Of a stretch of 64,000 bases of DNA, positions 21,308 to 57,723 are shown in pieces (the stretch's first letter is position 1; every line of letters begins with the position of its first letter). The notes below the pieces were generated by a model. It searched no databases. It was not told the origin of the DNA and saw nothing but the letters and a program-made list of their open reading frames with translations. This DNA is from Minisyncoccota bacterium. GTDB lineage: Bacteria; Patescibacteriota; Minisyncoccia; Phycocordibacterales; UBA9973. The stretch lies in NCBI GenBank assembly GCA_041661005.1, contig JBAZVG010000001.1:607515-671514 (forward strand). Reading direction: 5' to 3'. A program made the translations under genes and the position numbers.

Positions 21308-23527
21308 TTGTGTTATATTTCAAGTGTGACCACAGACACACAACATTTTTTTGGACTAAACAATAAACAAAAAGAAGCGGCGATGCACATAAGCGGTCCG
21401 CTTCTTATTATTGCAGGGGCGGGTGCGGGAAAAACTAAAACAATAACGCATAGAATTGTGAATTTGATAAAAAACGGAGTCGCCCCAGAGAGAATTTTAG
21501 CGGTTACGTTCACAAATAAAGCAGCAAAGGAAATGCGGGAACGGATTATCGCTGAAATTAAGAAAAATTCCCACGAAGCAGGGGGCCAAGAAAAAACCCC
21601 ATTCGTCAGCACGTTTCATTCATTGGGGGTCTATATCATAAAAGAAAATGCCAGATTGCTGGGATTAACCAAGCACTTTACGATTCTAGATGAAGGAGAC
21701 GCGACATCACTCATAAAAGAAATACTAAAGGAGTTAGGAATAGATCCGAAACAATATGATCCAAAAAAAATAAAAAATATAATATCTCGCGAAAAAGGAA
21801 AATTCACACATTTGTCAGACTATGCAGAGAGGGAAAGGGGAACATATGGTTTGATGGTAACGCAAGTTTGGGGTTTATATGAAAAACAAAAAATGAAAGA
21901 AAATTCGCTAGACTTCGATGATCTGCTTTTAAAGGCGACGAAATTGTTAAAGGACAATCTGGAAATAAGGAAAATTTATCAGGAGAAATGGGAATATATT
22001 CATATCGATGAATATCAAGACACAAATGAGGTGCAGTATTTGATGTCTAAAATGTTAGCGGAAAATAATGAAAATATCTGCGTAGTTGGAGACGCAGACC
22101 AAAACATCTACTCCTGGCGCGGAGCAAATTTGAAAAACATTTTAAGTTTCGAGAAAGATTATCCGAGTACAAAGATAGTTTTATTAGAAGAGAATTACAG
22201 ATCAACTCAAAACATCTTGGAGGCGGCCAATGTGGTAATTAAAAAAAACAAATACAGGCCAGACAAGAATTTATTCACAAAAAACAAAACTGGCGAAAAA
22301 ATAGGCCTATATGAAGCACTCGATGAAAGCGATGAGTCTGATTTTGTCGCGACAAAAATTCTAGAGATTTTAGATGGCTCGCCTGCGAGAGAAATATCCT
22401 CGGACTCACCACGAAAATTTTCTGCTGAAAATTTTCTCTGTCCGTCGTCGCCACTCCTACCAAGGGTTCCCTCGAGGACATTTCTCTCTTCGGCTGATAA
22501 CGCAGTAAGTTTCCTTGAGCGGGGTGTCTCGCAGGCTGACGAGCCGAGAGGCAGCGCTCCGCGAGCGCGCGGAGACAGCGACCCCGCTGAGACAGCACCT
22601 GCTCCCTTGTCCGAAATCGCTATATTATATCGCGCTAATTTTCAGTCGCGGGCGCTAGAAGAAGCAATGCTGAAATACAATATCCCATATCAAGTTTTGG
22701 GCGTTAAATTTTTCGAAAGACGTGAAATAAAAGACACCTTGGCATATCTTCGCGCAGCGCTAAACCCCGACAGTTTGTCGGACATAAAACGAATAATTAA
22801 TTTCCCTGCGCGAGGTATCGGCAAGGTTACTTTGGCTAAAATTTTTGCCGGACAAAAAGAAAACTTGCCAATTAAGGTAAAAATTAAAATAAATAATTTT
22901 TATAAAATATTAGAAGAAATAAAAGAAAAAATAGAAAGCGAAAAAGCAAGCAAAGCGATAAAATTTGTAGTAAAAAGGTCAGGCATCGAGACAGAACTCT
23001 CATCTGGCACCGAAGAAGATATGGAGAGGTTTGAAAACATAAAAGAACTCGCCACACTAGCGCTAAAATATGATAATCTGGAGAATGGTCTTGGTGTAGA
23101 AAAGCTTTTAGAAGACGCCTCACTCGCGTCAGATCAAGATTCACTGATTATCAGCGAACCCGCCTCCACCAAAGGCTTCGGCGAGGCAAAGGAAAAAAAG
23201 AAAGGAGAAAACTCTGTGAAATTAATGACCGTGCATGCTTCAAAAGGATTGGAGTTTAAGTATGTCTTTGTTGCCGGATTAGAGGATGGACTTTTCCCCA
23301 ACCAAAGACGCAACGAAGAAGTGGATAAGGATAGTGAAGAAGAGCGTAGACTTTTTTATGTGGCGATCACTCGCGCTAAAGAAAAATTATTCTTATCGTT
23401 CGCGAATTTCCGCACCATCTTCGGAGCGCGCAACATCAACGCTCCATCAGAATTTATATCGGACATACCAGCAGATTTATTGGAAAAAGAGGGAGAAAAA
23501 GATAGAATAAAGACAATTTATATATGA
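21308..23527 (+). CDS. uvrD: ATP-dependent DNA helicase UvrD/PcrA family
   Basis: LNNKQKEAAMHISGPLLIIAGAGAGKT (motifs Q/I); motifs through VI present; carries a ~220-bp in-frame repeat insertion; TTG start. Confidence 0.88.
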   Translation: MCYISSVTTDTQHFFGLNNKQKEAAMHISGPLLIIAGAGAGKTKTITHRIVNLIKNGVAPERILAVTFTNKAAKEMRERIIAEIKKNSHEAGGQEKTPFVSTFHSLGVYIIKENARLLGLTKHFTILDEGDATSLIKEILKELGIDPKQYDPKKIKNIISREKGKFTHLSDYAERERGTYGLMVTQVWGLYEKQKMKENSLDFDDLLLKATKLLKDNLEIRKIYQEKWEYIHIDEYQDTNEVQYLMSKMLAENNENICVVGDADQNIYSWRGANLKNILSFEKDYPSTKIVLLEENYRSTQNILEAANVVIKKNKYRPDKNLFTKNKTGEKIGLYEALDESDESDFVATKILEILDGSPAREISSDSPRKFSAENFLCPSSPLLPRVPSRTFLSSADNAVSFLERGVSQADEPRGSAPRARGDSDPAETAPAPLSEIAILYRANFQSRALEEAMLKYNIPYQVLGVKFFERREIKDTLAYLRAALNPDSLSDIKRIINFPARGIGKVTLAKIFAGQKENLPIKVKIKINNFYKILEEIKEKIESEKASKAIKFVVKRSGIETELSSGTEEDMERFENIKELATLALKYDNLENGLGVEKLLEDASLASDQDSLIISEPASTKGFGEAKEKKKGENSVKLMTVHASKGLEFKYVFVAGLEDGLFPNQRRNEEVDKDSEEERRLFYVAITRAKEKLFLSFANFRTIFGARNINAPSEFISDIPADLLEKEGEKDRIKTIYI
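22389..22486. repeat. TIR-bounded repeat family 2 (reverse orientation) inserted in frame in uvrD
   Basis: Termini gagaaatatcctcggac ... gtcctcgaggacatttctc; core gacggacagagaaaattttcagcagaaaattttcgtggtgagtccgag shared with 24020-24133 and 56167-56256. Confidence 0.7.
22521..22585. repeat. palindromic repeat family 3 (GGGGTGTCTCGCAGGCTGACGAGCCGAG...GGAGACAGCGACCCC) in frame in uvrD
   Basis: Shared with 62263-62327 and 62690-62754 (reverse); inner stem ctccgcg/cgcggag. Confidence 0.7.
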
Positions 23528-23538
23528 AACTCTTTCTT

Positions 23539-23656: not shown

Positions 23657-24727
23657 ATGATATATAAAGCTAAAAAATCGTTAGGACTAAAAAACGAACA
23701 CGTTTTCGTCCGAGCCAAAAAGGCTTTAGGACAAAATTTCCTGAAATCGGAAATGGCCTTGCGAAAAATTATTGAAGCGGGAGAAATAAAAAAAGATGAC
23801 ATAATCCTTGAAATAGGTCCGGGCAGGGGAGCGCTAACAAAAAAGCTTTTGGAAAAAGTTTACCCCGCCACGGCGGGGCAAGGATTTGTGATAGCAGTAG
23901 AAAAAGATTATGAACTTTTTGAATTTTTAAAAAATAAATTTGAAAGTGAAATAAAATTAGGTTCTCTCGTGCTGGTGCAAGATGACATACTGGATTTTGA
24001 TATAACAAAAGTTGGGCAAAATATTCTCGAGCGAACCCTTGGTAGCAGAAAATGTGCTGGGGGCACATTTCTGAGAGACGACGGACAGAGAAAATTTTCA
24101 GCAGAAAATTTTCGTGGTGAGTCCGAGAATATTTTGCCCAATTTAAAACGCTACAAAATAATCGCCAACATCCCTTACAACATCACCGGCGCGATTTTGA
24201 AAAAATTTTTGACAGACAAACATCAGCCCGAAAGCATGGTGCTGATGGTGCAACATGAAGTTGCGACAAGAATACTCGGAAGGGGAAGCAACCCTTCGAC
24301 TCCGCTCAGGGTAAAAGAAAGCATACTTTCCATTTCGGTCAAAGCATACGGAGCTCCAAAAATGATTGCGAAGGTTGATAAAAGATATTTTTCACCAATG
24401 CCAAAGGTAAATTCAGCGATTATTTCCATAAAAAATATTTCACGCAAGAATTTTAATTCTCCTCTTGAGGAGTACTCCGACTTGGAGTCGGAGGGAGGTG
24501 GACCGAATTTATCCACCCCGTCTCGCCAGCGAGCCACCCCTCAAGAGGGGAATTTTGAAGAAAAATTTTGGGAAATAGTTAAGGCAGGCTTTGCGCACAA
24601 GCGAAAAAAGCTTTCTAGCAACCTGAAAAACATTTGTCAAAGGGCATCTTTGACAAGTTTGGGGAATAAAAGAGCGGAAGATTTGTCGCTAAAGGATTGG
24701 ATTGAACTTGCGAAATCACAAAACTAG
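23657..24727 (+). CDS. rsmA: 16S rRNA (adenine1518/1519-N6)-dimethyltransferase RsmA/KsgA
   Basis: LGQNFL, EIGPGRGALT, NIPYNI motifs; lengthened to 356 aa by two in-frame repeat insertions. Confidence 0.85.
   Translation: MIYKAKKSLGLKNEHVFVRAKKALGQNFLKSEMALRKIIEAGEIKKDDIILEIGPGRGALTKKLLEKVYPATAGQGFVIAVEKDYELFEFLKNKFESEIKLGSLVLVQDDILDFDITKVGQNILERTLGSRKCAGGTFLRDDGQRKFSAENFRGESENILPNLKRYKIIANIPYNITGAILKKFLTDKHQPESMVLMVQHEVATRILGRGSNPSTPLRVKESILSISVKAYGAPKMIAKVDKRYFSPMPKVNSAIISIKNISRKNFNSPLEEYSDLESEGGGPNLSTPSRQRATPQEGNFEEKFWEIVKAGFAHKRKKLSSNLKNICQRASLTSLGNKRAEDLSLKDWIELAKSQN
24020..24133. repeat. repeat family 2 copy in frame in rsmA (with an extra internal hairpin agaaatgtgc/gcacatttct)
   Basis: TIRs aatattctcgagc ... 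gtccgagaatatt. Confidence 0.7.
24461..24550. repeat. palindromic repeat family 4 (CCTCTTGAGG...CCTCAAGAGG) in frame in rsmA
   Basis: Shared with 31728-31802, 40784-40866 and 48989-49063; inner hairpin variant ctccgacttggagtcggag. Confidence 0.7.
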
Positions 24728-28792: not shown

Positions 28793-31267
28793 ATGAGCAA
28801 AAAAATTAAAAAAATAATTCCATATTGCCTGATACTGGTCATCTTGGCCGGACTTTTTGGACCACTAGCGCAGATTCGAGCGCAAGGTCCATCCAACGCA
28901 CAGTCGGCAGGGGCATTGGTGACAGGAATACAACAGATAAATGCAGCAACGCCAGACAAAAGTAAATCAGCATTTGAAAATGCCCTTGATGAACATTGCA
29001 GTACCATAGCGAGTGGAAGTATTGGTGGCTGTCTGGCTCAATTATTTTATTTTCTATTTTACACAATACCAACATTTTTGCTTGGATTAACGGGAAAATT
29101 ATTAAATGTTGTTATCGTCCTTTCCTTGGACAGCGCCACATACAAAACTGGCTTCATAGATCAGGCATGGACAGTTGTCCGAGACTTTTCGAATATTTTC
29201 TTCATACTTATATTGCTGTATGTAGCTATTCAAACAATCTTGGGAATGGGTCACGAGACCAAGAAAATAATAGTCCAAGTCATCATCATGGCGTTACTCA
29301 TAAATTTTTCTATGTTTTTTACAAGAGTAGTAATTGATTCATCAAATATCTTAGCGCTTGTTTTTTACAATAAATTGACTACGTCGCAGGGAGACACTCC
29401 GTCAAATATAGTATCTTTGAAAAACAAAAGTACCGTAGAAAAAGGTATAACAGAAAAATTAGTTCAAGGGTTTGATATTACAAGGTTAATTAACGCAGAA
29501 TTTTTTAAACAGGCAAAAACCAGATCGGGGTTTGCTCCAGTATCCTTATCAAGCGCCGGATATACTGGAGCCGGAGCGGTGATTGGGACTTATATATTGC
29601 CAGGAGTGGGTACTGTAATTGGTGGAATCGCAGGGTTTACGTTGGCTTGGATCAACTCTGACAAGGTGCCTCCTTCTCTGCTGATAAGCATACTGATACC
29701 AGCAGGAATCATTATGTACTACGCAATGTACGTCTTTTTCACAGCGGGAATAGCTCTCTTGTCTAGAATAATCGAACTATGGGTGCTTACAATTTTTTCA
29801 CCATTTGCCTTTATGTCTTCAAGTTTGCCTTCACTGGCAAAGTTCCCGGGTGTTGGCTGGAGTGAATGGTTAAAAAGACTTTTTGAGGTAGCTCTCTCGG
29901 CGCCGATTTTTATGTTTTTCCTATTGCTGATTTTTAAAATAGTAGATGCGGATATAACCAAAGATCTACTCTCGCCAACAAGATTAGCGAAAGATCAGTG
30001 GCTCTTAGAAACAATCGTCCTTGTATCAATCGCTGCCTTTATAATTCTAGCACTCCTACAAAAAGCTACAAAATATGCCAAGAAAGCATCGGGAGAATTG
30101 GGAGAATTAATAACGAAGGGCGTAGGTCTAGTCAGTGGACTTGCCATAGGTGGAGGAATAGGTGTTGCAGCGGCAGGTTTGCAGGGGAGCTTGGGACATT
30201 TAGGTCAGAAGGCCTACGAGTCTAAAGGGTTGGCGGAATTGGAAACAAGTAAAAAAACTGGCATAAGAGGATGGGGTGAAAGAAGTATCGGTCGTGGATT
30301 AAGGACCATCGCAGGCGGAGATGACGGCAAAGGTGGATTTGCTGGTTCAAGTTTCGACTTGAGAAAAGGCACAGCTGGTGGAATTTTGAAACTGGCATCC
30401 TCCGCCACTGGGTTTAATTTAGGAGCGCAATCTAAATTCCTCATGAAAGAAGAGGGTGGATATATGGCAGACCTAAAGAGACGAGATGCAAAAAGAAAAG
30501 AGAGAGCCGAGGGATTGCAAGAATCATCAAGCGCAAAAGCCAAAGAAGAATTGCGCGACGCAGAAGACCAGCACCAAACCCTAATGACGGTAAGCTCACA
30601 GCCAATCAAAGAAATTGAAGAAAAAATCAAGAAAGCTCGAGAAGCTAAAAAGGATGCTAAAGCGGGAGATAAAGACGCAATATCAGACAAAATTAAAAAA
30701 CTCGAAGAACAGAAAAAGGCAATCAAGAATGCTAAAGCAAAGTCAATTGAAGAAGCTGAAAAAGATGTTAAAGAAGCAACTGAAGCGGCTGAACAAGCAA
30801 AACAAGCCTTAAAAGACAACCCTGATGACAAAGCCCTTCAAGATGTGGCTTGGGATGCCAACCAAAAATTAGCTGCTACTAAAGCTGGTAGAGCTTCTGC
30901 CATATCTGCTAAGGCTCTTGGTCTCAAGCCTGAAGATATGAGATCTATTAATGATTATGAGGATAATCTGATTAAAGATGCTAAACACAAGGTGCATCAC
31001 ACGGAGGAAAGAGTCGCACGAGCCTTCTCTGAGAATATAGAAAAGCAATTAGCTTGGCCATGGAATAAGGCTGCGCGCAAAAGATCGGCACAAGACATAA
31101 GAATGGGTATCAAGCCGGAAAAAAGTCATGATGAGGGGCACGGCGCACAACACTTTTGGGGTGATTTAGCAGCAGGAGCAATAACAAATGCACTTTCTGA
31201 TCATGGACACGAAGAAAAGAGTGATAATGCTAAACCTAGTGGAGACTCACATGCACCTGGACACTAA
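28793..31267 (+). CDS. VirB6/TrbL-like polytopic membrane protein with long C-terminal coiled-coil/low-complexity tail
   Basis: Signal peptide, then ~6 TM helices, then a Lys/Glu/Ala-rich 350-aa tail; TrbL-like architecture. Confidence 0.5.
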   Translation: MSKKIKKIIPYCLILVILAGLFGPLAQIRAQGPSNAQSAGALVTGIQQINAATPDKSKSAFENALDEHCSTIASGSIGGCLAQLFYFLFYTIPTFLLGLTGKLLNVVIVLSLDSATYKTGFIDQAWTVVRDFSNIFFILILLYVAIQTILGMGHETKKIIVQVIIMALLINFSMFFTRVVIDSSNILALVFYNKLTTSQGDTPSNIVSLKNKSTVEKGITEKLVQGFDITRLINAEFFKQAKTRSGFAPVSLSSAGYTGAGAVIGTYILPGVGTVIGGIAGFTLAWINSDKVPPSLLISILIPAGIIMYYAMYVFFTAGIALLSRIIELWVLTIFSPFAFMSSSLPSLAKFPGVGWSEWLKRLFEVALSAPIFMFFLLLIFKIVDADITKDLLSPTRLAKDQWLLETIVLVSIAAFIILALLQKATKYAKKASGELGELITKGVGLVSGLAIGGGIGVAAAGLQGSLGHLGQKAYESKGLAELETSKKTGIRGWGERSIGRGLRTIAGGDDGKGGFAGSSFDLRKGTAGGILKLASSATGFNLGAQSKFLMKEEGGYMADLKRRDAKRKERAEGLQESSSAKAKEELRDAEDQHQTLMTVSSQPIKEIEEKIKKAREAKKDAKAGDKDAISDKIKKLEEQKKAIKNAKAKSIEEAEKDVKEATEAAEQAKQALKDNPDDKALQDVAWDANQKLAATKAGRASAISAKALGLKPEDMRSINDYEDNLIKDAKHKVHHTEERVARAFSENIEKQLAWPWNKAARKRSAQDIRMGIKPEKSHDEGHGAQHFWGDLAAGAITNALSDHGHEEKSDNAKPSGDSHAPGH

Positions 31268-31307
31268 AAATTTACTTGTCCCGTACTAAATTATAAAAAC
31301 AAAACAC

Positions 31308-31847
31308 ATGACTGAAAAATTAAAACAAGCAATTGAAGAAGAAATCGCAAAATTGCCCAAAGAAGGGCAAGACGCCATTGGTGCTGTTAATTGGATTAAA
31401 ATAACCGAAGAAATAGGGAAAAAGTTTTTACTGGAAAATGATGAAATAGAAGATTTTCAATTGGAAACATTATTAGTCTTGATCGGATCCGTGGACTCTG
31501 AATTCTATTCAGTTAACATCGAAAACCAAGTGGGCACGACGAAGGAAGAAGCAAAAAATATGGCCGATGAAGCTTTCCAGAAAATATTCGTTCCCATAAG
31601 AAATATTCTGGAAGAAAATATAAAGAAAGATATGAAAAATAAAAATCCGGATTGGAAACAATCTCTTGATTTTATTCTCTCGGGTGGAGACTATCTTTCT
31701 TTTATAACGCCAACACAGACAAATTCTCCTCTTGAGGAGTACCCTTTAGGGGGAGGTGGAATATCCACCCCGTCTGGTAAACCAGCCACCCCTCAAGAGG
31801 GGAACGATCAAGAAACAGTTATCCCAGTGTTTTCGATAAAAAAATAA
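31308..31847 (+). CDS. hypothetical protein (carries a family-4 repeat in frame)
   Basis: 179 aa; N-terminal region resembles the next ORF. Confidence 0.45.
   Translation: MTEKLKQAIEEEIAKLPKEGQDAIGAVNWIKITEEIGKKFLLENDEIEDFQLETLLVLIGSVDSEFYSVNIENQVGTTKEEAKNMADEAFQKIFVPIRNILEENIKKDMKNKNPDWKQSLDFILSGGDYLSFITPTQTNSPLEEYPLGGGGISTPSGKPATPQEGNDQETVIPVFSIKK
31728..31802. repeat. palindromic repeat family 4 copy (in frame, encodes SPLEEYPLGGGGISTPSGKPATPQEGN)
   Basis: cctcttgagg ... cctcaagagg termini. Confidence 0.7.
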
Positions 31848-31880
31848 ACCAACAATTAAAATCTAAGCTATAATAACACC

Positions 31881-32549
31881 ATGACAGATACAATAGACTT
31901 GTTGCAAATAAAAATAGAGAAAGCGAAAAGGGAACTTCCGTCGGAAACTTTGAACGCCATTAACGCTGTCGACTGGAAGGCGTCCATCTTGGAACTGCGA
32001 GCAAAAAAGGGATACACCTTTGAACAGTTGAGTGATCTCGAGCTTGAAACAGAATTATTGCTTTGTGGACTTGCTCGTGCAGAAGATTACCCAAAAGAAC
32101 TGGAAAAAAGAATGGGGATTTCAAAATCGGCTACTAATGATCTGGTAAATGAAATGAACAACTTGGTTTTTAGAAAAATAAGAGAAGAATTAATCAAAAA
32201 TACTGAGAGAAAAAAAATATACGCGCAAAATGAACAAAAAAACACCAGCGACTCTCAAATCCTAAAATCAGTCGGTATTGAAATCGTCGAAAAAGAAACC
32301 TTGCCAGTGGCAGAGAAACTAGAACTCACGACAGCGCCCGTGGCTGGAGAAAAGTTTAAAGAAATCAGGAAGGAAGTGTTAGAAAAGATAGAAAATCCAG
32401 AGCCCGCTCATCCGATATTGGCTCAGAAATTGTCCGCCTCAGTCCAAGCTCCAATAGTCAAAACAGATCATTCGCTAGGCAACCTGTCTAAGACAAATAC
32501 ACCAAACACCACGCCCAAAATAGATCCTTACCGCGAAATACCGGAGTAG
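31881..32549 (+). CDS. hypothetical protein (distant paralog of 31308-31847)
   Basis: 222 aa; similar N-terminal helical region. Confidence 0.45.
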   Translation: MTDTIDLLQIKIEKAKRELPSETLNAINAVDWKASILELRAKKGYTFEQLSDLELETELLLCGLARAEDYPKELEKRMGISKSATNDLVNEMNNLVFRKIREELIKNTERKKIYAQNEQKNTSDSQILKSVGIEIVEKETLPVAEKLELTTAPVAGEKFKEIRKEVLEKIENPEPAHPILAQKLSASVQAPIVKTDHSLGNLSKTNTPNTTPKIDPYREIPE

Positions 32550-32598
32550 ACACTGTGGGAGAGTAATCAGATTCATGTTAAACTTAGGTTAGTTCTCA

Positions 32599-33015
32599 AT
32601 GCAATTCAAAGTACCACAATTTTTAGATATAGAAGACAAGATCTTTGGTCCATTCACTTTCAAAGAGTTTGTTTACTTGGCAGGTGGAGCAGGTCTTTGT
32701 TTTGTGCTTTATAAATTGCTGGGGCTCGTCTGGGGCGCTATACCGATCTTGGCAGTCGGAGGATTTTCAATAGCTCTCGCTCGATATAGACCCAACAACA
32801 AACCTTTCATCAATATGATCGAGGCGGGATTTAGCTATTTAATGCAGAGCAAGCTCTACATTTGGAAAAGACGCACAAATAAAGCGAACACTAAAGAACA
32901 GAAAGAGATAGCAAATGAAAATATTGTCATGAATAGGAACACGGTAAGGTTAGGAGGGAACAAGTTGCGGGATTTGGCTTGGAGCCTGGACGTGCTTGAT
33001 TTAAAAAAGCAGTAA
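32599..33015 (+). CDS. PrgI/VirB3-like small membrane protein
   Basis: FKVPQFLDIEDKIFGPFTFKEFVYLAGGAGLCFVLYKLL matches the PrgI-family pattern; two TM helices; immediately upstream of VirB4. Confidence 0.5.
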   Translation: MQFKVPQFLDIEDKIFGPFTFKEFVYLAGGAGLCFVLYKLLGLVWGAIPILAVGGFSIALARYRPNNKPFINMIEAGFSYLMQSKLYIWKRRTNKANTKEQKEIANENIVMNRNTVRLGGNKLRDLAWSLDVLDLKKQ

Positions 33016-33024
33016 ATTAATAAT

Positions 33025-33666
33025 ATGTCTTTAAACGCAAAAGCAACTCAAGAGTTTGTGCCAATCAAGGAAGTCCGCGATGGAGTAATCGTGCTAAAAG
33101 ACGGCGGATTGCGAGCAATCATACTCGCTAATTCGGTCAATTTATCGCTAAAGTCAGGTGAAGAACAAAAGGCCACCATTTTTCAATTCCAAAGTTTTTT
33201 GAATACTTTAGATTTCGCCGTTCAGATATCGGTGCAAAGCAGAAGGCTGGATATCCGACCGTATCTATTGCTTTTAGAAGACCGAGCAAAAGTGCAAAAC
33301 GAGCCCTTGCTCAAATTGCAAACAAAGGAATACATAGAGTTCATAAGAAATTTTACCGAATCAGTAAGCATAATGACTAAAAGTTTTTTTGTGGTAGTTC
33401 CATATACGCACACTGTTTTAAGATCAGACTCCGGGATATTAAAAAGATTGTTCCAAAAAAGAAACAAAGAAGAAGCAAACACTGCAAAACAAGAAGATTT
33501 CGAGGAAAAGAGATCGCAACTGGAAGAAAGAGTAAGCGTGATCGAACAAGGGCTCAGTCGCTGTGGCATAAAATCAGCCCAGCTGGGCACGGAAGAAGTC
33601 GTGGAAGTATTTTATAAAGTATTTAATCCGGGGGAAGTGGAGGGGAAGATTAAAATTGAACAATAA
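33025..33666 (+). CDS. VirB4/TraC-family ATPase, N-terminal domain (separate ORF)
   Basis: CagE/TrbE/VirB N-domain-like; stop at 33666, next ORF starts at 33672 in another frame. Confidence 0.55.
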   Translation: MSLNAKATQEFVPIKEVRDGVIVLKDGGLRAIILANSVNLSLKSGEEQKATIFQFQSFLNTLDFAVQISVQSRRLDIRPYLLLLEDRAKVQNEPLLKLQTKEYIEFIRNFTESVSIMTKSFFVVVPYTHTVLRSDSGILKRLFQKRNKEEANTAKQEDFEEKRSQLEERVSVIEQGLSRCGIKSAQLGTEEVVEVFYKVFNPGEVEGKIKIEQ

Positions 33667-33671
33667 AGATT

Positions 33672-35519
33672 ATGGGCATATTTGATAAATTATTTAAAAA
33701 AAAAGGAAGTAACTCTTACGGAGGCGAAGCCAATGCGTCTATTCTAGCGGTATTACCGGAACAAATCTATGAATCGGCGAGTCTAGAGCTCCAAGATGTG
33801 ATCGCGCCATCAGCGCTCAAAATCGAATCAAAGTCCATAAATTTGGGCGACAAAATCGCTCGAACATTTTTTATAATATCTTACCCGAGATTTTTGACTG
33901 ACAATTGGTTTTCTCCGATAATCAATTTGGACAAAGTTTTTGATATTTCAATTTTCATCCATCCGATAGACACCTCTTTGATGCTACGACAATTTCAGAA
34001 AAAAGTTGCAGAAGTGCAAAGCCAGATAAATGTGCGTGAAACAAAAGGCATGGTACGCGATCCGATGCTTGACACTTCCTACCAAGACCTCGAAGGGTTG
34101 CGCGACAGCTTGATCCAAGCGCAGGAAAAAATGTTTGATGTCGGAATTTACATAACTATTTATGCCGATAATGAACTTGAGCTTTTCAAAACTGAAAATG
34201 AAATAAAATCCATGTTGGAATCTAAATTGATATACATCAAACCAGCGCTTTTTCAACAAGAAGACGGTTTCAAGAGCGTCATACCGATAAATACCGACTT
34301 GCTAAATATTCACCAAAAATTAAATTCGGAGCCCCTCTCGAGCGTTTTCCCGTTTATCTCTTTCGATCTGACTTCTGACAAAGGCATCCTTTACGGCATC
34401 AATAGACACAACTCAAGCTTAGTGATCTTCGATAGGTTCAGCTTAGAAAACTATAATTCAGTAACTTTTGCCAAATCAGGTTCAGGAAAATCATACGCGA
34501 CAAAATTGGAAATCCTCAGGTCTTTGATGTTTGATGTTGACGTGATAGTGATAGACCCAGAAAGGGAATACGAGTTTTTGTCTGAAGCCGTGGGTGGGAG
34601 ATATTTCAACATCTCCCTTTCTTCAGACCATCATATGAATCCGTTTGATCTGCCAATGCCACGTGAAGACGAAACGGCTGAAGATGTGTTGCGTTCAAAC
34701 ACCATTAATCTGGTCGGGCTCTTTCGATTGATGCTGGGAGGACTCACGCCCGAAGAAGATTCGATGGTTGATCGAGCCATTTCAGAAACTTATGCCATCA
34801 AGGATATAACTCCAGAATCGGATTTTTCAAATATCGAGCCTCCACTCCTTTCAGACTTTGAGATGGTGCTAGGAGGAATGGATGGAAGCGATTCGATCGT
34901 GCAACGTTTGGCAAAATACACCAAAGGCTCTTGGGCAACTTTTTTAAATAGACCAAGTAACGTGGACATCAATAAAAAGTTCATCGTCTTCTCTGTCCGC
35001 GATATGGAGGACGAATTGAAACCGGTCGCAATGTATATAATCATGCATTACATCTGGAATTCGATACGCAAAAATCTGAAAAAACGTTTACTGGTCGTCG
35101 ATGAAGCTTGGTGGATGATGAAATCCGAAGACACTGCTTCGTTCCTATATTCTATCGCCAAAAGAGGCAGAAAATATTATTTGGGACTTTCTACGATCAC
35201 CCAAGACGCGGCTGACTTCATGAAATCTCCATATGGCGTACCGATAATCACCAACTCCTCTATCCAGCTATTGTTAAAACAATCTCCGACAACTATTGAT
35301 ATACTGCAAAAAACATTCAATTTAACTGACGAAGAAAAATACCTCCTGCTCGAATCGAGCGTGGGCGAAGGCATCTTCTTTGCAGGGTTAAAGCACGTTG
35401 CCATAAAAATAATTTCTTCCTACATAGAAGATCAGATAATTACCAGTGACCCTTCGCAGATATTGTTAAATAGAAAAGCAAAAGAAGAACAAGAGGCGGG
35501 GACGCTAGTTGCAAAGTAA
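33672..35519 (+). CDS. VirB4/TraC-family conjugal-transfer ATPase, C-terminal ATPase domain
   Basis: Walker A AKSGSGKS, Walker B LLVVDEAW, conserved GLSTITQ region. Confidence 0.8.
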   Translation: MGIFDKLFKKKGSNSYGGEANASILAVLPEQIYESASLELQDVIAPSALKIESKSINLGDKIARTFFIISYPRFLTDNWFSPIINLDKVFDISIFIHPIDTSLMLRQFQKKVAEVQSQINVRETKGMVRDPMLDTSYQDLEGLRDSLIQAQEKMFDVGIYITIYADNELELFKTENEIKSMLESKLIYIKPALFQQEDGFKSVIPINTDLLNIHQKLNSEPLSSVFPFISFDLTSDKGILYGINRHNSSLVIFDRFSLENYNSVTFAKSGSGKSYATKLEILRSLMFDVDVIVIDPEREYEFLSEAVGGRYFNISLSSDHHMNPFDLPMPREDETAEDVLRSNTINLVGLFRLMLGGLTPEEDSMVDRAISETYAIKDITPESDFSNIEPPLLSDFEMVLGGMDGSDSIVQRLAKYTKGSWATFLNRPSNVDINKKFIVFSVRDMEDELKPVAMYIIMHYIWNSIRKNLKKRLLVVDEAWWMMKSEDTASFLYSIAKRGRKYYLGLSTITQDAADFMKSPYGVPIITNSSIQLLLKQSPTTIDILQKTFNLTDEEKYLLLESSVGEGIFFAGLKHVAIKIISSYIEDQIITSDPSQILLNRKAKEEQEAGTLVAK

Positions 35520-35537
35520 TACAACCCCTCCCAACCT

Positions 35538-35584
35538 CCCCTTGTCAGGGGAGGAAAAATTCGGAGTGTCTCCCTGACAAGGGG
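35538..35584 (+). terminator. GC-rich hairpin (ccccttgtcaggg / ccctgacaagggg, 13-bp stem) after the virB4 stop, before an extended -10 promoter (TGGTATAAT)
   Basis: Seen directly. Confidence 0.35.
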
Positions 35585-35620
35585 GATATAGGGGGTTGAA
35601 TTATGGTATAATTAAATTGC

Positions 35621-36610
35621 ATGAAATTTGGAAAATTTTTGTCATTATGTTTAATCGCCACGTTTGCAGTATTTGTAATTATTCCAACATACAAGGCAAA
35701 CGCTCAATCGTCTGGTGGCATCTCGATCAACATGTCGCCCTCCAATCCGGCGCCGTATGAAAACACGACTATCACCCTAAAAAGTTATGAGAGCAATCTA
35801 GACAGCGTCTTGATATCTTGGTCTATCGATGGAAAAGTTTCCTCCTCGGGTATTGGCAAAAAATCATTCTCTGTCACCGCTCCAGCCACAGGAGGGGAGA
35901 TGCGTGTTGTGGCCACAATATCTTTACCAAGTGGCCCAAAAAATATAAGTTTAACGATAAAGCCCTCTGTAATGGTTCTACTTTGGCAGGCAAACGACTC
36001 GCATGTTCCTCCTTTTTATAAAGGCAAGGCTCTACCAACCCCTGACAGCGAAGTGAAGGTTGTAGCGATGCCTGAAATAAGAAATAGTTCTGGTAATATT
36101 CCTCCACAGAACATGATCTACTCTTGGAAAAAAGACTACACCAACAACGTAGACGGTTCAGGCTATGGTAAAAGTTTTTTTCTCTACATAAACGATTATT
36201 TAGAAGACTCAAATAATATTTCAGTCGTAGTTTCGACCATAGATCAACAACTTTCATCGAATGCAAGCATAGACATAGGAACAGTCCAACCAAAAATATT
36301 ATTTTACAAAAATGACGCCAATCTTGGCACGATTTTAGAGCATTCACTGCTTAATCCTCACAAAATACAAGGAGGGGAGATATTAGAAGCAATACCTTAT
36401 TTTATTTCACCGAAAGAAATACAAAATCCGACCTTGGTCTGGAATTGGTATATCAATGACAATTTGGTAAACTTAATAAGTCCTAAAAAAAATTTAATGC
36501 CGTTGCAGGTGGAAGCAGGGACACACGGAACATCCAAACTAAGGCTCAATATTGAAAATCAAGACAAAATTTTTCAAACAGCAAATAAGGAAATAAATAT
36601 AGAATTCTAA
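35621..36610 (+). CDS. secreted hypothetical protein
   Basis: Signal peptide MKFGKFLSLCLIATFAVFVIIPTYKANA; Ser/Asn-rich. Confidence 0.5.
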   Translation: MKFGKFLSLCLIATFAVFVIIPTYKANAQSSGGISINMSPSNPAPYENTTITLKSYESNLDSVLISWSIDGKVSSSGIGKKSFSVTAPATGGEMRVVATISLPSGPKNISLTIKPSVMVLLWQANDSHVPPFYKGKALPTPDSEVKVVAMPEIRNSSGNIPPQNMIYSWKKDYTNNVDGSGYGKSFFLYINDYLEDSNNISVVVSTIDQQLSSNASIDIGTVQPKILFYKNDANLGTILEHSLLNPHKIQGGEILEAIPYFISPKEIQNPTLVWNWYINDNLVNLISPKKNLMPLQVEAGTHGTSKLRLNIENQDKIFQTANKEINIEF

Positions 36611-36616
36611 AATAGA

Positions 36617-37255: not shown

Positions 37256-37257
37256 TT

Positions 37258-40866: not shown

Positions 40867-40869
40867 AAT

Positions 40870-42636: not shown

Positions 42637-43734
42637 ATGAAACTAGAATGCAAAACTGAAGAAATAAAAAATAAAATTTCACAAGTAGAAAGAATTACTG
42701 GAAAGAATTTAACTTTACCTGTTTTAAATTCAATTCTTTTGATTGCGTCTGGTAAATCATTAAAACTCAGATCTACAAATCTAAGTTTAGGTATTGAAGT
42801 TGAAATCCCTGCCAAGGTGGAAAAGGAAGGTATTGTTGCTATTTCTGGGTCAGTATTAAATGGTATTTTTTCTAATGTTTTTCAAAATGAGAATGTTTAC
42901 TTTGAAAGCGTGGATGGTAATCTGTTAATTCAAACAAAGAAGAGTAAAATAAAACTTAAAGGCCAACCACACGATGATTTTCCAACAATACCAATGGTTT
43001 CTGGAACAAGTTTTGAGATAGATTCTAAAAAATTAGTAGATGGGATAAAATCCGTTTACTATAGTTCATCTTCATCAGATATAAAGCCTGAAATATCAAG
43101 CGTTTTCATGCACACCCAGGAAGATAATTTAATATTTGTTTCCACTGATTCATTTAGGTTGGCAGAGAAGAAAATAAAAATAAAAGGACTTCCTGAAATA
43201 GGAGGTATATTGATTCCATATAAAAACATCTCTGAAATTCTAAGAGTTTTTGGGGAATTATCTTTGACCGTAAAGGTATGTTTCAATAAAAACCAAATTT
43301 CCTTTTCATCCGATGGTGTGTATCTGACTTCACGAGTGATCGATGGAGTTTTTCCAGATTATCGTCAAATTATCCCCAAGACTTCAGGAACCAGCGCTGT
43401 TGTGCTCAAACAGGACATGTTGAATGCGCTCAAGATTTCAAATATCTTTTCAGATAAATTTAATCAAGTTAATTTAAGAGTTTCACCGCAGGAGAAAGTC
43501 TTTGAGCTTTCATCTATCAACAATGACATCGGAGAAAATAAAACGTATCTAGATGCCGCCTTAACCGGAGAGGACGTCGAACTTGGTTTTAATTACAAAT
43601 ACTTTCTAGATTGTTTCCAGTCTATCGCCACCGACAGCATGTCCATAAAATTCTCTGGAGTTAGCAGTCCTTTGATGGTGTCTCCGGTCTCCGATTCGTC
43701 ATTTACGTATCTTATTATGCCGATGAATAGGTGA
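42637..43734 (+). CDS. dnaN: DNA polymerase III beta sliding clamp
   Basis: 365 aa; three-domain clamp; conserved synteny with dnaA. Confidence 0.9.
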   Translation: MKLECKTEEIKNKISQVERITGKNLTLPVLNSILLIASGKSLKLRSTNLSLGIEVEIPAKVEKEGIVAISGSVLNGIFSNVFQNENVYFESVDGNLLIQTKKSKIKLKGQPHDDFPTIPMVSGTSFEIDSKKLVDGIKSVYYSSSSSDIKPEISSVFMHTQEDNLIFVSTDSFRLAEKKIKIKGLPEIGGILIPYKNISEILRVFGELSLTVKVCFNKNQISFSSDGVYLTSRVIDGVFPDYRQIIPKTSGTSAVVLKQDMLNALKISNIFSDKFNQVNLRVSPQEKVFELSSINNDIGENKTYLDAALTGEDVELGFNYKYFLDCFQSIATDSMSIKFSGVSSPLMVSPVSDSSFTYLIMPMNR

Positions 43735-48865: not shown

Positions 48866-48988
48866 TCGAAGATCTGCCCGAGCTCCGGGAGGGGTCTGAC
48901 AAGACCCCTCCCATCCATCAAAGTCCACTAGTTGGACTCTTTCACTGAAGGAGCACTAGTGGCTTTTTCTTTTACCTTTTTTATTATT

Positions 48989-49063
48989 CCCCTCTTGAGG
49001 GGTGGCTCGCTTGTGAGACGGGGTGGATATCCCACCTCCCCCTAAAGGGTACTCCTCAAGAGG
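48989..49063. repeat. palindromic repeat family 4 copy overlapping the ruvB 3' end (supplies the last codons and stop)
   Basis: cctcttgagg ... cctcaagagg. Confidence 0.7.
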
Positions 49064-50090
49064 AGAATGGAAACCCTAAATGCTCATACGATGCCTTGGT
49101 GGCGACACGTCCGCGCGCAGTGCGCTCCAATAATCCGAGTTGAATTAAATACGGTTCGATTACTTCTTCGACGGTGGCTTCTTCTTCGGACATAGCAGCT
49201 GCCATAGTTTTTAACCCCACCGGTCCGCCCTTGAATTTTTCAATTAATATTTCCAAGAATTTTCTATCGGAAGAATTAAGCCCTATGTCATCGATCGCGA
49301 GCATATTCAATGCCTCTTTTACTATTTTCTGATCTAAACTTTTTTTATTGTCCTTTTTACTTACTTGAGCAAAGTCACGACAACGCTTCAAGAAATAATT
49401 TGCGGTGCGAGGAGTAAATCTGCTTCTCTTGGCGATCTCTGCTAAAGCCTCTTTTTCTAAAATAATATCTAAAAGTTTACTTGACCGCTCGATTATTTTT
49501 GCAATTTCTTCATTGGAATAAAATTCCAATCGGAAAACTCCGCCGGAGAATCGTGAACGAAGTGGAGAGGAGATCAAAGCCACTCGAGTAGTCGCTGCTA
49601 TCAAAGTAAAAGGCGGGAGGTCTAATTGAATAGTGCGAGCAGATGGACCTTTGCCGATGATGATGTCTAAAACACCAGACTCCATGGCTGGGTAAAGTAT
49701 TTCTTCAACCATTTTATTTAGTCTGTGAATCTCATCGATAAAAAGAATGTCGCCCGGAGCAAGGTTCGTGAGGATAGATGCCAAATCTCCCACTTTTTCG
49801 ATTGCCGGTCCGGAAGTTATTTTCATTTGCCGACCGGTTTCTTTTGCTATGAGATGCGCCAGAGTAGTCTTGCCCAAACCTGGAGGTCCGTAAAAAAGGA
49901 TGTGTTCTGGAATGTGTCCACGCTCCTCTGCCGCTCGCAAAAGGATTTTTACGTTGTCTTTTATGTGTTTTTGACCGATGTATTCATCGAAGCGGGTAGG
50001 GCGCAAGGTTTGATCCAGTACCACGTCTTCAGTTTTGCTTGCCCCGCCTTGGCGTGGGTCTTTTTCTTTGGAGGTTGACATTAGTTTCAC
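49056..50090 (-). CDS. ruvB: Holliday junction branch migration ATPase RuvB
   Basis: Walker A GPPGLGKTTLA, sensor motifs, winged-helix C-terminus. Confidence 0.92.
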   Translation of the reverse strand: MKLMSTSKEKDPRQGGASKTEDVVLDQTLRPTRFDEYIGQKHIKDNVKILLRAAEERGHIPEHILFYGPPGLGKTTLAHLIAKETGRQMKITSGPAIEKVGDLASILTNLAPGDILFIDEIHRLNKMVEEILYPAMESGVLDIIIGKGPSARTIQLDLPPFTLIAATTRVALISSPLRSRFSGGVFRLEFYSNEEIAKIIERSSKLLDIILEKEALAEIAKRSRFTPRTANYFLKRCRDFAQVSKKDNKKSLDQKIVKEALNMLAIDDIGLNSSDRKFLEILIEKFKGGPVGLKTMAAAMSEEEATVEEVIEPYLIQLGLLERTARGRVATKASYEHLGFPFSS

Positions 50091-53411: not shown

Positions 53412-53414
53412 ACT

Positions 53415-55112: not shown

Positions 55113-55221
55113 TACATGAATTATAGCAACAAATGAGGAGCATAAACAAATTTATTTGTTTAATGTCCGAGTGCTGTTGCTATATGGTAATCCATATATC
55201 TTAAATGGTATTATTTACATA

Positions 55222-57723
55222 ATGCCTAAAGAAGACAATCAGGATTCTAAAACATTAGTTTTGTTGGATTCTCACGCCATAATTCATCGTGCGTATCACG
55301 CCTTACCAGAATTTTTGTCGTCAAAAGGAGAACCCACTGGGGCCTTGTATGGCCTTGCAAGCATGTTGATGAAGATAGTTACTGATTTAAAACCAGACTA
55401 TATCGTGGCTTGTTATGATTTGCCGGAAAAGACTTTTCGTCATTTAGCTTATGATGATTACAAGGCTGGACGAGCGAAAACAGATGACGCTCTGATCTTG
55501 CAGTTGAAAAATTCTCGCCAGATTTTCGAGGCATTTAATATTCCTATTTATGACTGTTCGGGTTTTGAGGCGGATGATGTATTGGGAACGATATGCGAGC
55601 AGATGAAGAAAAATAATGGGACTAAGGTAATCATTGCTTCGGGTGATATGGACACAATGCAGTTAGTAGACGACAAGAGAGTCCAGGTTTATACCCTCAA
55701 AAAGGGAATTAATGAAACAATTTTATATGATGAAGATGCAGTTGTGGCCCGTTTTGGATTTAAGCCTCAACTTTTGCCGGATTACAAAGGATTACGTGGT
55801 GATCCATCAGATAACATTAAAGGTATCAAAGGGATTGGAGAAAAAACAGCAACTACACTGATTACGACTTTTGGCAGTATCGAAGAAATTTACAACAAAA
55901 TAAAAAAAGACGAAGAATCTTTCATTAAAGCTGGCATCACTCCTAGAATGATCGAGTTAATAAAAAATAATGAAGAAGAAGCGCTCTTTTCAAAAACTTT
56001 AGCCAAGATTCGAACTGATGTTCCGATAAATTTTCTTTTGCCCCAGAAAACTTTTTGGGAAAATGTAAATCCAGAAAAAATAGAGAAAACTTTTGCCTTG
56101 TTTGAATTTAGAAGCTTATTTGGACGTTTGAAAAACTTCTTTAGCGGACAGAAGACACACGAGGAGAATGTTCTCGAGCGAACCCTTGGTAGGAGTGACG
56201 ACGACGGACAGAGAAAATTTTCAGCAGGAAATTTTCGTGGTGAGTCCGAGAATATTCTCTCGAGTGAGGATTCTAAAGGTATAGATTCTCTGAAACTTCA
56301 AGAAGCTAGCATTGCTCTTTGGCTTGTAAATTCAGATATCTCAAATCCACAACTCGAAGATGTTTTAATGTTTGCCCGCCTAGACTCGGCGAGGCTGGCC
56401 AGCACAGATTCTTTTGATGTTGCGTATGAGCAAATTTTTAAGACTCTGAAAGAAAAAAAGCTTGATAGAGTTTATGAAGAAATAGAACGTCCAATAATGC
56501 ACATAGTCAAAGAGATGGAAGATTATGGAATTTTGATAGATAAAAAATATTTTGAAAATTTATCAACGGAGTATCATCGAGAATTAGATAAATTAACTGC
56601 CAAAATATACAAGATGGCTGGCACAGAATTCAATATCAATTCACCCAAACAGATGGGGGAAGTTCTTTTTGAGAAAATGGGCATGAAGTCCGGAACAAAA
56701 TTAGCCAAGAAAAATGCGAGTGGCAACTTTTCTACCAAAGTTTCAGTATTAGAAGAACTTGAAGAAGCAAACCCAATAATCAAAGAAATACTTGCTTACC
56801 GAGAATTGCAAAAATTGCTTTCCACTTATATTGATGTAATTCCTAAAATGGTTGGCGCTGATGACAGACTACATGCAATATTTTTGCAAAATGGCAGTAC
56901 CACTGGAAGATTCTCCTCGCAGGATCCAAATTTGCAGAACTTGCCGATAAAAACAGAATTAGGGAAAAAGATTCGAGGTGGTTTTATCGCCCAAAAGGGT
57001 TACAAACTCTGCGCTTTTGATTATAGTCAGATTGAACTGCGTGTAGCTGCCATACTTTCGGGTGATAAAAAAATGACGCAAATATTCAAGGAAGGTAAGG
57101 ATATTCATTCAGGAGTTGCGTCTTTTGTTTTTGGTGTGCCGATAGATAAAGTTGACAGTGAAATGCGACGCAAGGCGAAGGTAATAAATTTCGGAATAAT
57201 TTATGGCATGGGAGTTTCTAGTTTACGCAAGAATCTTGGGGGTACACGAGAAGAGGCGCAAAAATTTTATGATAATTACTTTAATCAATTTTCCGGAGTG
57301 CGAGATTATTTGGAGGAAACGAAGAAGTTTGCGCTAAAAAATTCTTTTACCGAGACTTTGTTTGGCCGACGTAGATATTTTCCGAATATAAATTCCAGAA
57401 TTCCATTTTTAAAAAATATGGCCGAACGGACAGCCACGAACGCGCCAATCCAAGGCACAGCCACGGCGGATATTATCAAGCTTGCTATCAGATATGCAGA
57501 AGAGGATTTAAAAAATGCAGGACTTTTGGCACAAGTTCATCTTGTTCTCCAAATTCATGACGAGCTGGTGTATGAAATAGAGGAAGGTGTTTTAGAAAAA
57601 GCTGATGAAATAATAAAAAATGCCATGAAAAGTGTCTTGGAAAGATCATATTTGCATTATAAAACCGATATTCCACTTGAAGTGCATTCTGGCTCTGGAG
57701 ACAATTTCGGGGAGGTAAAATAG
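55222..57723 (+). CDS. polA: DNA polymerase I
   Basis: 5'-3' exonuclease domain (LLDSHAIIHRAYHA), polymerase motifs A/B/C (DYSQIELR, KxxNFGxxYG, QIHDEL); the annotated ORF starts at 55156 but the internal Met at 55222 is preferred; carries an in-frame family-2 repeat. Confidence 0.9.
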   Translation: MPKEDNQDSKTLVLLDSHAIIHRAYHALPEFLSSKGEPTGALYGLASMLMKIVTDLKPDYIVACYDLPEKTFRHLAYDDYKAGRAKTDDALILQLKNSRQIFEAFNIPIYDCSGFEADDVLGTICEQMKKNNGTKVIIASGDMDTMQLVDDKRVQVYTLKKGINETILYDEDAVVARFGFKPQLLPDYKGLRGDPSDNIKGIKGIGEKTATTLITTFGSIEEIYNKIKKDEESFIKAGITPRMIELIKNNEEEALFSKTLAKIRTDVPINFLLPQKTFWENVNPEKIEKTFALFEFRSLFGRLKNFFSGQKTHEENVLERTLGRSDDDGQRKFSAGNFRGESENILSSEDSKGIDSLKLQEASIALWLVNSDISNPQLEDVLMFARLDSARLASTDSFDVAYEQIFKTLKEKKLDRVYEEIERPIMHIVKEMEDYGILIDKKYFENLSTEYHRELDKLTAKIYKMAGTEFNINSPKQMGEVLFEKMGMKSGTKLAKKNASGNFSTKVSVLEELEEANPIIKEILAYRELQKLLSTYIDVIPKMVGADDRLHAIFLQNGSTTGRFSSQDPNLQNLPIKTELGKKIRGGFIAQKGYKLCAFDYSQIELRVAAILSGDKKMTQIFKEGKDIHSGVASFVFGVPIDKVDSEMRRKAKVINFGIIYGMGVSSLRKNLGGTREEAQKFYDNYFNQFSGVRDYLEETKKFALKNSFTETLFGRRRYFPNINSRIPFLKNMAERTATNAPIQGTATADIIKLAIRYAEEDLKNAGLLAQVHLVLQIHDELVYEIEEGVLEKADEIIKNAMKSVLERSYLHYKTDIPLEVHSGSGDNFGEVK
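56167..56256. repeat. repeat family 2 copy in frame in polA
   Basis: aatgttctcgagcg ... gtccgagaatatt TIRs; encodes ...RSDDDGQRKFSAGNFRGESENIL. Confidence 0.7.

Follow-up and report, generated by a model that had tools for sequence, protein, structure and literature searches.

In-frame hairpin repeats resembling Rickettsia palindromic elements in housekeeping genes of Nomurabacteria and related Patescibacteria

Two papers (PMC10969869, PMC1779305) describe Rickettsia palindromic elements (RPEs) as palindromic repeats of 100-150 bp that are abundant between and within genes, lie there in frame and fall into about ten families. We have analyzed a 64-kb stretch of Patescibacteria DNA (contig JBAZVG010000001.1; hereafter the window) in which a hairpin repeat, here called family 2, lies in frame in the genes uvrD, rsmA and polA. 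The Rickettsia elements, RPE-1 to RPE-10, were reportedly introduced by Ogata et al. in 2000 and 2002, and to our knowledge in-frame 'protein-coding palindromes' have so far been described mainly in Rickettsia. A literature search on such elements in bacteria of the candidate phyla radiation (CPR), or Patescibacteria, returned nothing relevant.

Family 2 is likened to RPEs by architecture and behaviour, not by sequence. Both are interspersed hairpin repeats of 100-150 bp (family-2 units have 102 or 126 nt) found in genic and intergenic DNA, and both are translated in frame as an extra peptide in unrelated housekeeping proteins; in both cases there are several families per genome, the host genome is reduced and no associated transposase is known. 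We do not file family 2 as an RPE because its hosts belong to an unrelated phylum (Patescibacteria/CPR as against Rickettsiales). It differs further in having a conserved internal core of 64 nt closed by a variable stem with compensatory changes, in sitting in loops that are re-used by different families and orientations, and in the conservation of its core at synonymous sites across genomes that are ~73% identical.

Our preferred reading, which we regard as probable though far from secure, is that family 2 is a selfish, non-autonomous, RPE-like hairpin repeat family of the Nomurabacteria/Paceibacterota clade, filtered for translatability; we infer its mobility from the distribution of its copies.

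Copies in the window and in public DNA

Three sub-motifs of the element were searched for in the window, with up to three mismatches, and the counts were compared with those in shuffled sequence. Only the copies in uvrD, rsmA and polA and one partial match (38910-38933) were found, where the shuffles lead one to expect 0.00; all three copies reported in a preliminary description of the window were recovered in this way. They also reside in frame, as it had claimed: the host open reading frames (ORFs), identified with Pfam, are open across the element, and translation is stop-free in three of three copies. When unit boundaries are set with 19-nt arms the copies in uvrD, rsmA and polA measure 102, 126 and 102 nt (Table 1), that is, 34 codons for the standard unit and 42 for the long form. 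These lengths are divisible by three, a point that had been raised as one to check, and insertion therefore keeps the reading frame.

Mean column identity in an alignment of the three copies, flanks included, is 77%, and the element itself is near-identical among them, save for a 24-nt block unique to the rsmA copy. Whole-unit folds have z-scores from -3.3 (polA, -36.6 kcal/mol) to -7.2 (rsmA, -54.6 kcal/mol); the uvrD copy folds at -34.1 kcal/mol on the mRNA strand and at -42.1 on the element strand. The stem has 21 bp in rsmA and 16 bp in uvrD, while the polA arms have 13 bp paired plus one inner C:G pair. The polA unit is translated as ENVLERTLGRSDDDGQRKFSAGNFRGESENIL, and the element-encoded peptides include ..ERTLGRSDDDGQRKFSAGNFRGESENIL.. 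in PolA, ..ERTLGSRKCAGGTFLRDDGQRKFSAENFRGESENIL.. in RsmA and, from the reverse strand, ..SSDSPRKFSAENFLCPSSPLLPRVPSRT.. in UvrD. The centre of the core, GAAAATTTTC-AGCA-GAAAATTTTC, is almost its own reverse complement, and thus RKFSAENF is encoded in both orientations. Among the loci fetched from public DNA, the polA site is also filled in L043, L052 and L108, and the UvrD loop that holds the reverse copy of the window carries forward copies in at least 11 other loci; in L002, L007 and L016/L027 the copy in this loop is reverse.

Table 1. Repeats, host genes and other features of the 64-kb window
Feature	Coordinates	Strand	Remarks
Family-2 standard unit (102 nt) in polA	56161-56262	+	34 codons; core 56180-56243; arms 56161-56179 / 56244-56262
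Family-2 long-form unit (126 nt) in rsmA	24014-24139	+	42 codons; core 24033-24120 (88 nt); extra hairpin inside core 24046-24073; stem reaching outward to 24012-24141
Family-2 standard unit (102 nt) in uvrD	22387-22488	- (reverse relative to gene)	core 22406-22469
UvrD/PcrA-type helicase (host)	21308-23527	+	Pfam UvrD-helicase/UvrD_C; PDB alignment to 1pjr
RsmA/KsgA 16S rRNA dimethyltransferase (host)	23657-24727	+	Pfam RrnaAD; PDB alignment; homologues
DNA polymerase I (host)	55156-57723	+	Pfam 5'-3' exonuclease + DNA_pol_A; true start likely ATG at 55219
Different-family intergenic hairpin element	38841-38979	+	centre 38910-38933, GCAAATTTTCAGCAGAAAATTATG
~119-nt intergenic hairpin family	10477-10595, 13514-13632, 23527-23643, 38841-38979		
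GC-rich in-frame hairpin family	22510-22586, 62252-62328, 62690-62754		..GVSQADEPRGSAPRARGDSDP..
GC-rich element in uvrB	62654-62775		
CCA-adding/poly(A) polymerase-like gene	16922-18631	-	
Hairpin element in CCA-adding-like gene	17518-17618		~84 nt net
Repeat family TATCCACCCCGTCTCGCnAGCGAGCCACCCCTCAAGAGGGGAAT	24510-24568, 31762-31820, 40826-40884, 48977-49068		
Diversity-generating retroelement	6692-9707		complete
Reverse transcriptase ORF	7020-8069	-	
Template repeat	8479-8586		
ORF with variable repeat	9060-9707	-	
Variable repeat	9083-9190		3' end of ORF 9060-9707
Type IV secretion-like cluster	28793-38844		
TraG/VirB4-like P-loop ATPase	33672-35519		
Type IV secretion pilin-like protein	36617-37255		
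dnaA	41156-42505		
dnaN	42637-43734		

Further copies were collected in two scans. An exact 38-nt pattern from the core matched 26 stretches in 23 species-representative genomes, and one taken from the core's other half matched 83 metagenome stretches (groundwater, lake, sediment); a scan of viral contigs gave no match. Since loci were ascertained by exact half-core patterns, core conservation is overstated, although in each scan the half that was not used was free to vary. All stretches from the genome scan come from metagenome-derived assemblies of Candidatus Nomurabacteria, Paceibacterota or Patescibacteria, some of them auto-labelled 'Saccharibacteria'. A genome-wide repeat census had been proposed in the preliminary description; over all the fetched genome and metagenome DNA, a profile search counted 105 distinct family-2 copies, all of them from Nomurabacteria/Paceibacterota.

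Ninety-two of the 105 copies (88%) are genic, that is, inside an ORF of at least 400 nt, and 13 are intergenic or on short contigs; a genome this compact is expected to be coding to about the same extent. Forward genic copies number 83, all in the single frame ..ERTLGRSDGDGQRKFSAENFRGE.. (84 with L008, if a variant anchor is allowed), seven are reverse, all in the single frame ..SPRKFSAENFLCPSPSLLPRVP.., and one overlaps an ORF end in another frame. The host frame is kept and free of stops in 90 of the 92 genic copies, each orientation using a single frame.

The copies fall in 13 host-gene clusters at ~16 sites and in both orientations, which supports the resemblance to RPEs that had been suggested from the window. 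The hosts, identified by conserved motifs or, for the window genes, by Pfam, are UvrD and UvrC (two sites each), RsmA, Fmt, UvrB, RecG, PolA, TsaD and Tgt, with further sites in the HD/CCA-adding enzyme, MetK and two unknown proteins. Five of the 13 host genes serve DNA repair or replication (uvrD, uvrB, uvrC, recG and polA) and five encode tRNA/rRNA-modification or maturation enzymes; no gene for a ribosomal protein, RNA polymerase or elongation factor was among the hosts found across the loci. A role as a LexA/Cheo box or DNA-uptake sequence, prompted by the excess of DNA-repair hosts, was considered and dropped, as no matching motif was found and the copy number is far too low. Searches with the insert peptide yielded 10 candidates only (word-indexed) and five short matches (exhaustive phmmer on cluster representatives); a census at the peptide level is uninformative because 38 residues make too weak a query and the insert is often missing from representatives chosen at 50% identity.

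Core, stem and arm subfamilies

Every copy contains the 64-nt core GAACCCTTGGnAGGAGyGrCGrCGACGGACAGAGAAAATTTTCAGCAGAAAATTTTCGTGGTGA between complementary arms. The fixed terminal inverted repeats of ~13 bp given in the preliminary description did not hold: conservation lies in the internal core, and the stem that closes it is longer and covaries (13-21 bp in the window; 13-27 bp for the unit as defined here and 11-30 bp, median 19, overall), its sequence varying by copy with complementarity kept.

Covariation was analyzed in an alignment of 95 sequences, with shuffled columns and with partners slid by 1-3 columns as controls. Double-sided changes occur at all 24 outer-stem pairs, and 82.8% of stem cells are paired. 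The stem covariation score is 0.54, as against 0.18 for shuffled columns (none of 500 shuffles scores as high); with slid partners it does not exceed 0.18. Compensatory change beyond that due to relatedness was found in the outer stem and at core pair 17:22. The latter pair marks a two-pair mini-hairpin, C:G in 62 copies and U:A in 33, which is broken in none, and pairing in the central 10-bp hairpin of the core reaches 99%, the few variants there, GAAAATCTTC/GAAGATTTTC and TTGA/TCAA, being compensated. Core pair A3:U62 is changed to G:C in L011, and the remaining core variation is limited to positions 11, 17, 19, 22, 43, 45 and 48, mostly in loops or compensated pairs. Three copies, in the window rsmA, L002 and L005, have a long-form core of 88 nt; the extra hairpin that had been noticed in the rsmA copy proved real, as it recurs with compensatory changes in the other two (GTGCTGGGGGCAC, GTACCCGGAGGTAC, GTGCTGGGAGCAC).

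The same core occurs in four arm subfamilies. The majority of copies have arms CTCGAGC/GTCCGAG (subfamily A); arms TTTTGA/GCAAAA (B) are found in fmt, some rsmA copies and L035, arms TTATG/CAGAA (C) in tsaD and some uvrD-A copies, and arms TTTTT/AAAAA (D) in intergenic copies only, where the same core is retained. One forward and one reverse frame of the unit are stop-free, and the peptide of genic copies is hydrophilic, with 34-42 residues: GQNVLERTLGRSDGDGQRKFSAENFRGESENILS. In subfamily D the frame in use meets a TGA where arm and core join (TTTTTGAACCC), and the confinement of this sole junction-stop subfamily to intergenic DNA points to a filter for translatability.

The long stem brings the flanks of the element together, much as in excised or bypassed elements, and one might suppose that the segment is removed before or during translation, as a small intron, by bulge-helix-bulge-type excision or by translational bypass. 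We consider this highly improbable. The genic copies keep the frame and lack stops, with the two exceptions mentioned, despite rapidly changing arms; unit lengths are multiples of three; the subfamily with a junction stop is intergenic; and such conservation of frame would be needless if the segment were removed. The 'byp' elements of Magnusiomyces mitochondria, reportedly described by Lang et al. in 2014 (compare the coding gap of T4 gene 60), are similar to family 2 as short mobile hairpin-forming inserts in protein-coding genes of a reduced genome; they are skipped by the ribosome, however, and need not be open, whereas genic family-2 copies are open and have a length that is a multiple of three.

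Gain and loss of copies, and competing readings

The inserts lack a counterpart in solved KsgA and PcrA. Bacillus subtilis KsgA aligns to residues 20-119 and 166-258 of the window RsmA, which has 46 residues between these segments as against ~10 in KsgA. PcrA (1pjr) aligns up to ..ILEILDG and resumes at SEIAILYR, with 77 residues in the window UvrD standing against five; the insert loop precedes the motif ..AILYRANFQSR. The alignment of Taq polymerase covers residues 13-275 and 412-830 and not the insert region, which is situated between the 5'-nuclease and polymerase domains. In an AlphaFold model of the window RsmA (64-sequence alignment), the predicted local distance difference test (pLDDT) score is ~51-68 in the insert and 82-95 in the methyltransferase fold, consistent with a flexible surface loop.

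Many Nomurabacteria orthologues are empty as well, in agreement with the lineage-specific insertion that the preliminary description had assumed. The rsmA site is empty in 12 fetched loci (e.g. DILKFNISKLRNYKIIANIPY) and the site in the cca-like gene in L003, L013 and L027; the uvrD-B loop is nearly empty in L047 and holds one to three elements in series in other species. Among the 120 best RsmA homologues (54-72% identity) 24 have a canonical copy, at least five a diverged one and ~45 no such peptide, the remaining ones having other repeat-derived segments in the same loop; among the 120 best Fmt homologues 35-42 copies are canonical, ~13 are diverged and many sites are empty.

These data bear on the notion that the segment is an ancestral protein sequence, or a domain evolving at the protein level, and not a DNA repeat. 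The peptide is well conserved, yet it is absent from the solved orthologues and from many close relatives, and unrelated proteins and intergenic DNA contain it; moreover, its reverse-strand version is an unrelated peptide and conservation is seen at the nucleotide level. We give this notion practically no credence. The same peptide in orthologues from unrelated lineages would have pointed to ancestry and was not found in the solved KsgA and PcrA structures, so the view of a mobile repeat taken in the preliminary description stands.

A single site can hold different occupants. Forward and reverse copies occur at the same site in uvrD-B, rsmA and tsaD, different arm subfamilies at the rsmA site (A, B) and the uvrD-A site (A, C), and short or long forms can occupy one site. 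A different hairpin family may be present at the same loops in other species: the site of the GC-rich element in the window uvrB holds family 2 in L017, and that of the hairpin element in the window cca-like gene holds family 2 in L109, L047 and L049. This is evidence for several independent events at single sites. Copies are gained by and lost from a few permissive surface loops of low-expression housekeeping enzymes (the named hosts listed above, from UvrD to MetK), and the surviving genic copies are those translated into a hydrophilic peptide.

A diverged copy is found in L014 (6678-6774). In fmt, loci L110-L115 carry solo hairpins with arms of 17-24 bp and a loop of 8-12 nt that retains only the 5' end of the core, GAACCC(TTGG), in frame; the loops are clearest in L113 (AGAACCCTTGGG) and L112 (TAAAACCC) and similar in L115 (TTTTAGAACCC) and L111 (TTGAGAAAC). 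These are remnants of internal deletions by which the core was lost. Alleles L116 and L117 of fmt are plainly empty, with no hairpin at all.

In L075 (520-643) the 5' part of uvrD passes into the 3' part of rsmA, and the join falls precisely on a family-2 copy (compare L101, 3644-5052). This chimera is either a recombination deletion between two direct copies arranged as in L101 or an artefact of metagenome assembly. A 99% identical partial RsmA, P0012, starts directly after the element, which suggests that assemblies also break at family-2 repeats.

Several observations weigh against a selfish mobile repeat. MITEs, or miniature inverted-repeat transposable elements, are, like family 2, small and multi-copy, encode no transposase, have inverted terminal arms, vary in presence and absence and occasionally form in-frame fusions with host ORFs. 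Their terminal inverted repeats are conserved, however, matching those of a parent insertion sequence and accompanied by a target-site duplication, whereas in family 2 the pattern of conservation is reversed, with the termini least conserved and the interior nearly invariant, no parent insertion sequence is known, and nearly all genic copies preserve the frame. Of 56 standard units, 31 have direct GRA triplets on their two sides, at seven or more sites, and elsewhere the stem simply continues; as a duplication these triplets are only suggestive, and they may reflect codon bias rather than a 3-bp target duplication. The arms of standard copies were considered as inverted target duplications and rejected as such, given that empty rsmA alleles lack both arms and that arm subfamilies recur at unrelated sites; at fmt such an origin may still hold.

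At the same orthologous site, third-codon identity is 0.91-0.96 in the core as against 0.46-0.54 in flanking host codons, and over alignable DNA the window is only 70-77% identical to any locus. To keep its core so constant despite this divergence, a purely selfish element would have to re-insert again and again at these few sites or pass from one species to another. Ascertainment by the exact core inflates the apparent conservation; still, among the copies in the protein-level samples, whose collection did not depend on the element, canonical ones form the majority, with a diverged tail. Two copies in one locus usually differ in core haplotype, and the C:G and U:A haplotypes are each present at no fewer than 11 sites; cores and arms have thus been reshuffled, not homogenised, and concerted evolution within the genome was rejected as the cause of core conservation.

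At fmt, the divergence of the arms tracks that of the host (Mantel r 0.34, p 0.0125), which suggests that copies there were inherited vertically while their core was kept constant in situ; arms do not track host divergence at uvrD-B and rsmA. Native codons can also be aligned with both fmt arms, and relative to an empty allele of the L117 type only ~66 nt are gained net, which does not agree with insertion of a fixed 102-nt unit. No transposase or obvious mobilising gene, and no HUH/RAYT gene, was seen among the ORFs of the 64-kb window, to which the search was confined; the tyrosine recombinase there is Xer-like and the only reverse transcriptase belongs to a diversity-generating retroelement. 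As part of a canonical element of that kind, the reverse transcriptase was rejected as a mobiliser.

A few ancient insertions, inherited vertically and refreshed by homologous recombination or gene conversion with no present transposition, would suit the finding of ~100 copies at only ~16 sites, the site-specific flavours of the arms (GAAGAAT.. at polA, subfamily B at fmt, subfamily C at tsaD) and the tracking of the host at fmt. The core haplotypes (CAG, TGA, TAA and TTA at positions 17, 19 and 22) are shuffled among sites, as by gene conversion, and the uvrD-rsmA chimera at an element makes recombination between copies possible. Yet both orientations and different arm subfamilies are met at one site, and copies in non-homologous genes and in intergenic DNA call for some form of insertion; nor do arms track the host at uvrD-B and rsmA, and recombination leaves the constancy of the core across species unexplained. 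We therefore judge such a history improbable.

As the main alternative, the core may be a functional strand-specific structured RNA or single-stranded DNA (ssDNA) held in place by selection, with the frame a side condition; it could be an mRNA domain (a protein-binding or RNase III processing site), a small-RNA precursor or an ssDNA hairpin recognised by the host. The identity at synonymous core sites speaks for this, as do the concentration of core variation in predicted loops or compensated pairs (17:22 and the central hairpin) and the A3:U62 covariation in L011. Forward genic copies far outnumber reverse ones (83-84 against seven), intergenic copies keep the same core, and in the stem G:T exceeds A:C on the forward strand of the element, by 70:7 in forward genic copies. 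In fmt the arms co-diverge with the host and the core does not, and the stem overlaps native codons; gene conversion alone is insufficient, as copies within a genome are not homogenised.

On the other side, two stem positions account for 52 of the 70 G:T pairs, which are possibly inherited rather than independently selected, and the seven copies reverse to their host gene put the complement in the mRNA. With Rfam 15, only tRNAs reach the gathering score in the window, and around the polA copy a limit of E<=10 brings up no relevant match. Diverged copies, internal deletions and many empty sites indicate that hosts manage without the element, the exact-match scans inflate conservation, and several unrelated hairpin families in the same loops resemble opportunistic colonisation. 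A structured core held in place thus seems unlikely to us, and we rate no higher the corollary that the closing stem need only pair and might be built from neighbouring sequence.

A 'core-and-stem' element, with a 64-nt core under its own selection and a helix created or recruited from the flanks, host codons included (fmt would be the example), is a possibility that we entertain tentatively, and it would set family 2 apart from transposons delimited by terminal inverted repeats; equally tentative is the idea that it would spread or function via a folded single strand (mRNA or ssDNA), the frame being merely tolerated. Two described systems offer a comparison. REPINs, REP elements that Bertels and Rainey in 2011 reportedly showed to be mobilised by RAYT transposases, are likewise ~100-nt hairpins of two inverted arms with population-like evolution and probably an ssDNA substrate. 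They are extragenic, though, and have conserved REP arms around a variable spacer and a RAYT gene, whereas family 2 is arranged in reverse and is 88% genic. The attC sites of integrons are found between gene cassettes; their outer core sites are conserved, their centre varies, and they depend on an integron integrase. Recognition by way of a folded single strand rather than by sequence, imperfect inverted repeats and strand-specific mismatches make up the likeness; the conserved outer sites, variable centre, cassette setting and integrase are attC features not seen in family 2.

If family 2 is a selfish repeat, as we prefer to think, unit lengths that are multiples of three, together with a single open hydrophilic frame in each orientation, would let insertions survive in permissive loops, where they would be tolerated because the loop is disordered and at the surface. 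Stems might be kept paired by compensatory change or template switching, and copies would decay or lose their cores. Movement would presumably be due to an enzyme acting in trans that recognises the core and the paired stem, possibly with a 3-bp (GRA) target duplication.

Neighbouring features and significance

The window has a GC content of ~39% and is dense with other repeat families. A fragment at 38899-38935 had been listed in the preliminary description as fused to a family-1/3 core; the fragment exists, but it is no stray piece of family 2 and forms the middle of an intergenic hairpin element of a different family, which shares the AAATTTTCAGCAGAAAATT module with the family-2 core and has an architecture conserved in L021 (2300-2460) and L012 (4590-4760). 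It is counted in the ~119-nt intergenic hairpin family of Table 1. The repeat families are mosaics, module GCAGGCTGACGAGCCGAG being common to this intergenic family and the GC-rich one, and in-frame versions of the intergenic mosaic (..SIAQADEPSIANFQQKIMCGF..) are present in RsmA, Fmt and UvrD loops of other species. One GC-rich copy directly follows the family-2 copy in uvrD, and two inverted copies are in uvrB. The GC-rich neighbouring family has a CUGAnGA motif, and a hammerhead was considered; it was rejected, with no Rfam hammerhead match and no GAAA after stem II.

The hairpin element in the CCA-adding/poly(A) polymerase-like gene belongs to a different family again. The copy of the TATCCACCCCGTCTCGCnAGCGAGCCACCCCTCAAGAGGGGAAT family in rsmA forms a second insert (residues ~259-300), absent from KsgA structures and with pLDDT <50. 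A further in-frame family, ..SDFSSLRPSR(I/S)TEWDPRE(A)QNRK.., occurs in UvrD-B/RsmA loops (L016, L001, L013, L024 and L089), often beside family 2.

In the diversity-generating retroelement, which is complete, the repeats differ at template adenines (12 A>G, 7 A>C and 4 A>T), and GC content rises locally to 0.47. The window also holds five tRNAs and the type IV secretion-like cluster, in which the TraG/VirB4-like ATPase and the pilin-like protein sit among ORFs without Pfam matches. The position of dnaA and dnaN indicates that the replication origin is probably near 40.8-41.1 kb.

The findings extend an RPE-like phenomenon, represented by several families, to CPR bacteria that are free-living or episymbiotic and have genomes of ~0.6 Mb, where the repeats reside in essential DNA-repair and RNA-modification enzymes. 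For annotation this matters in that protein lengths are inflated and made variable by the repeats, at which metagenome assemblies break and chimeras can arise. In the evolution of proteins they readily supply new surface loops. As to the biology of mobile elements, variable termini, a synonymously conserved core and no apparent transposase point to recognition of a folded single strand.

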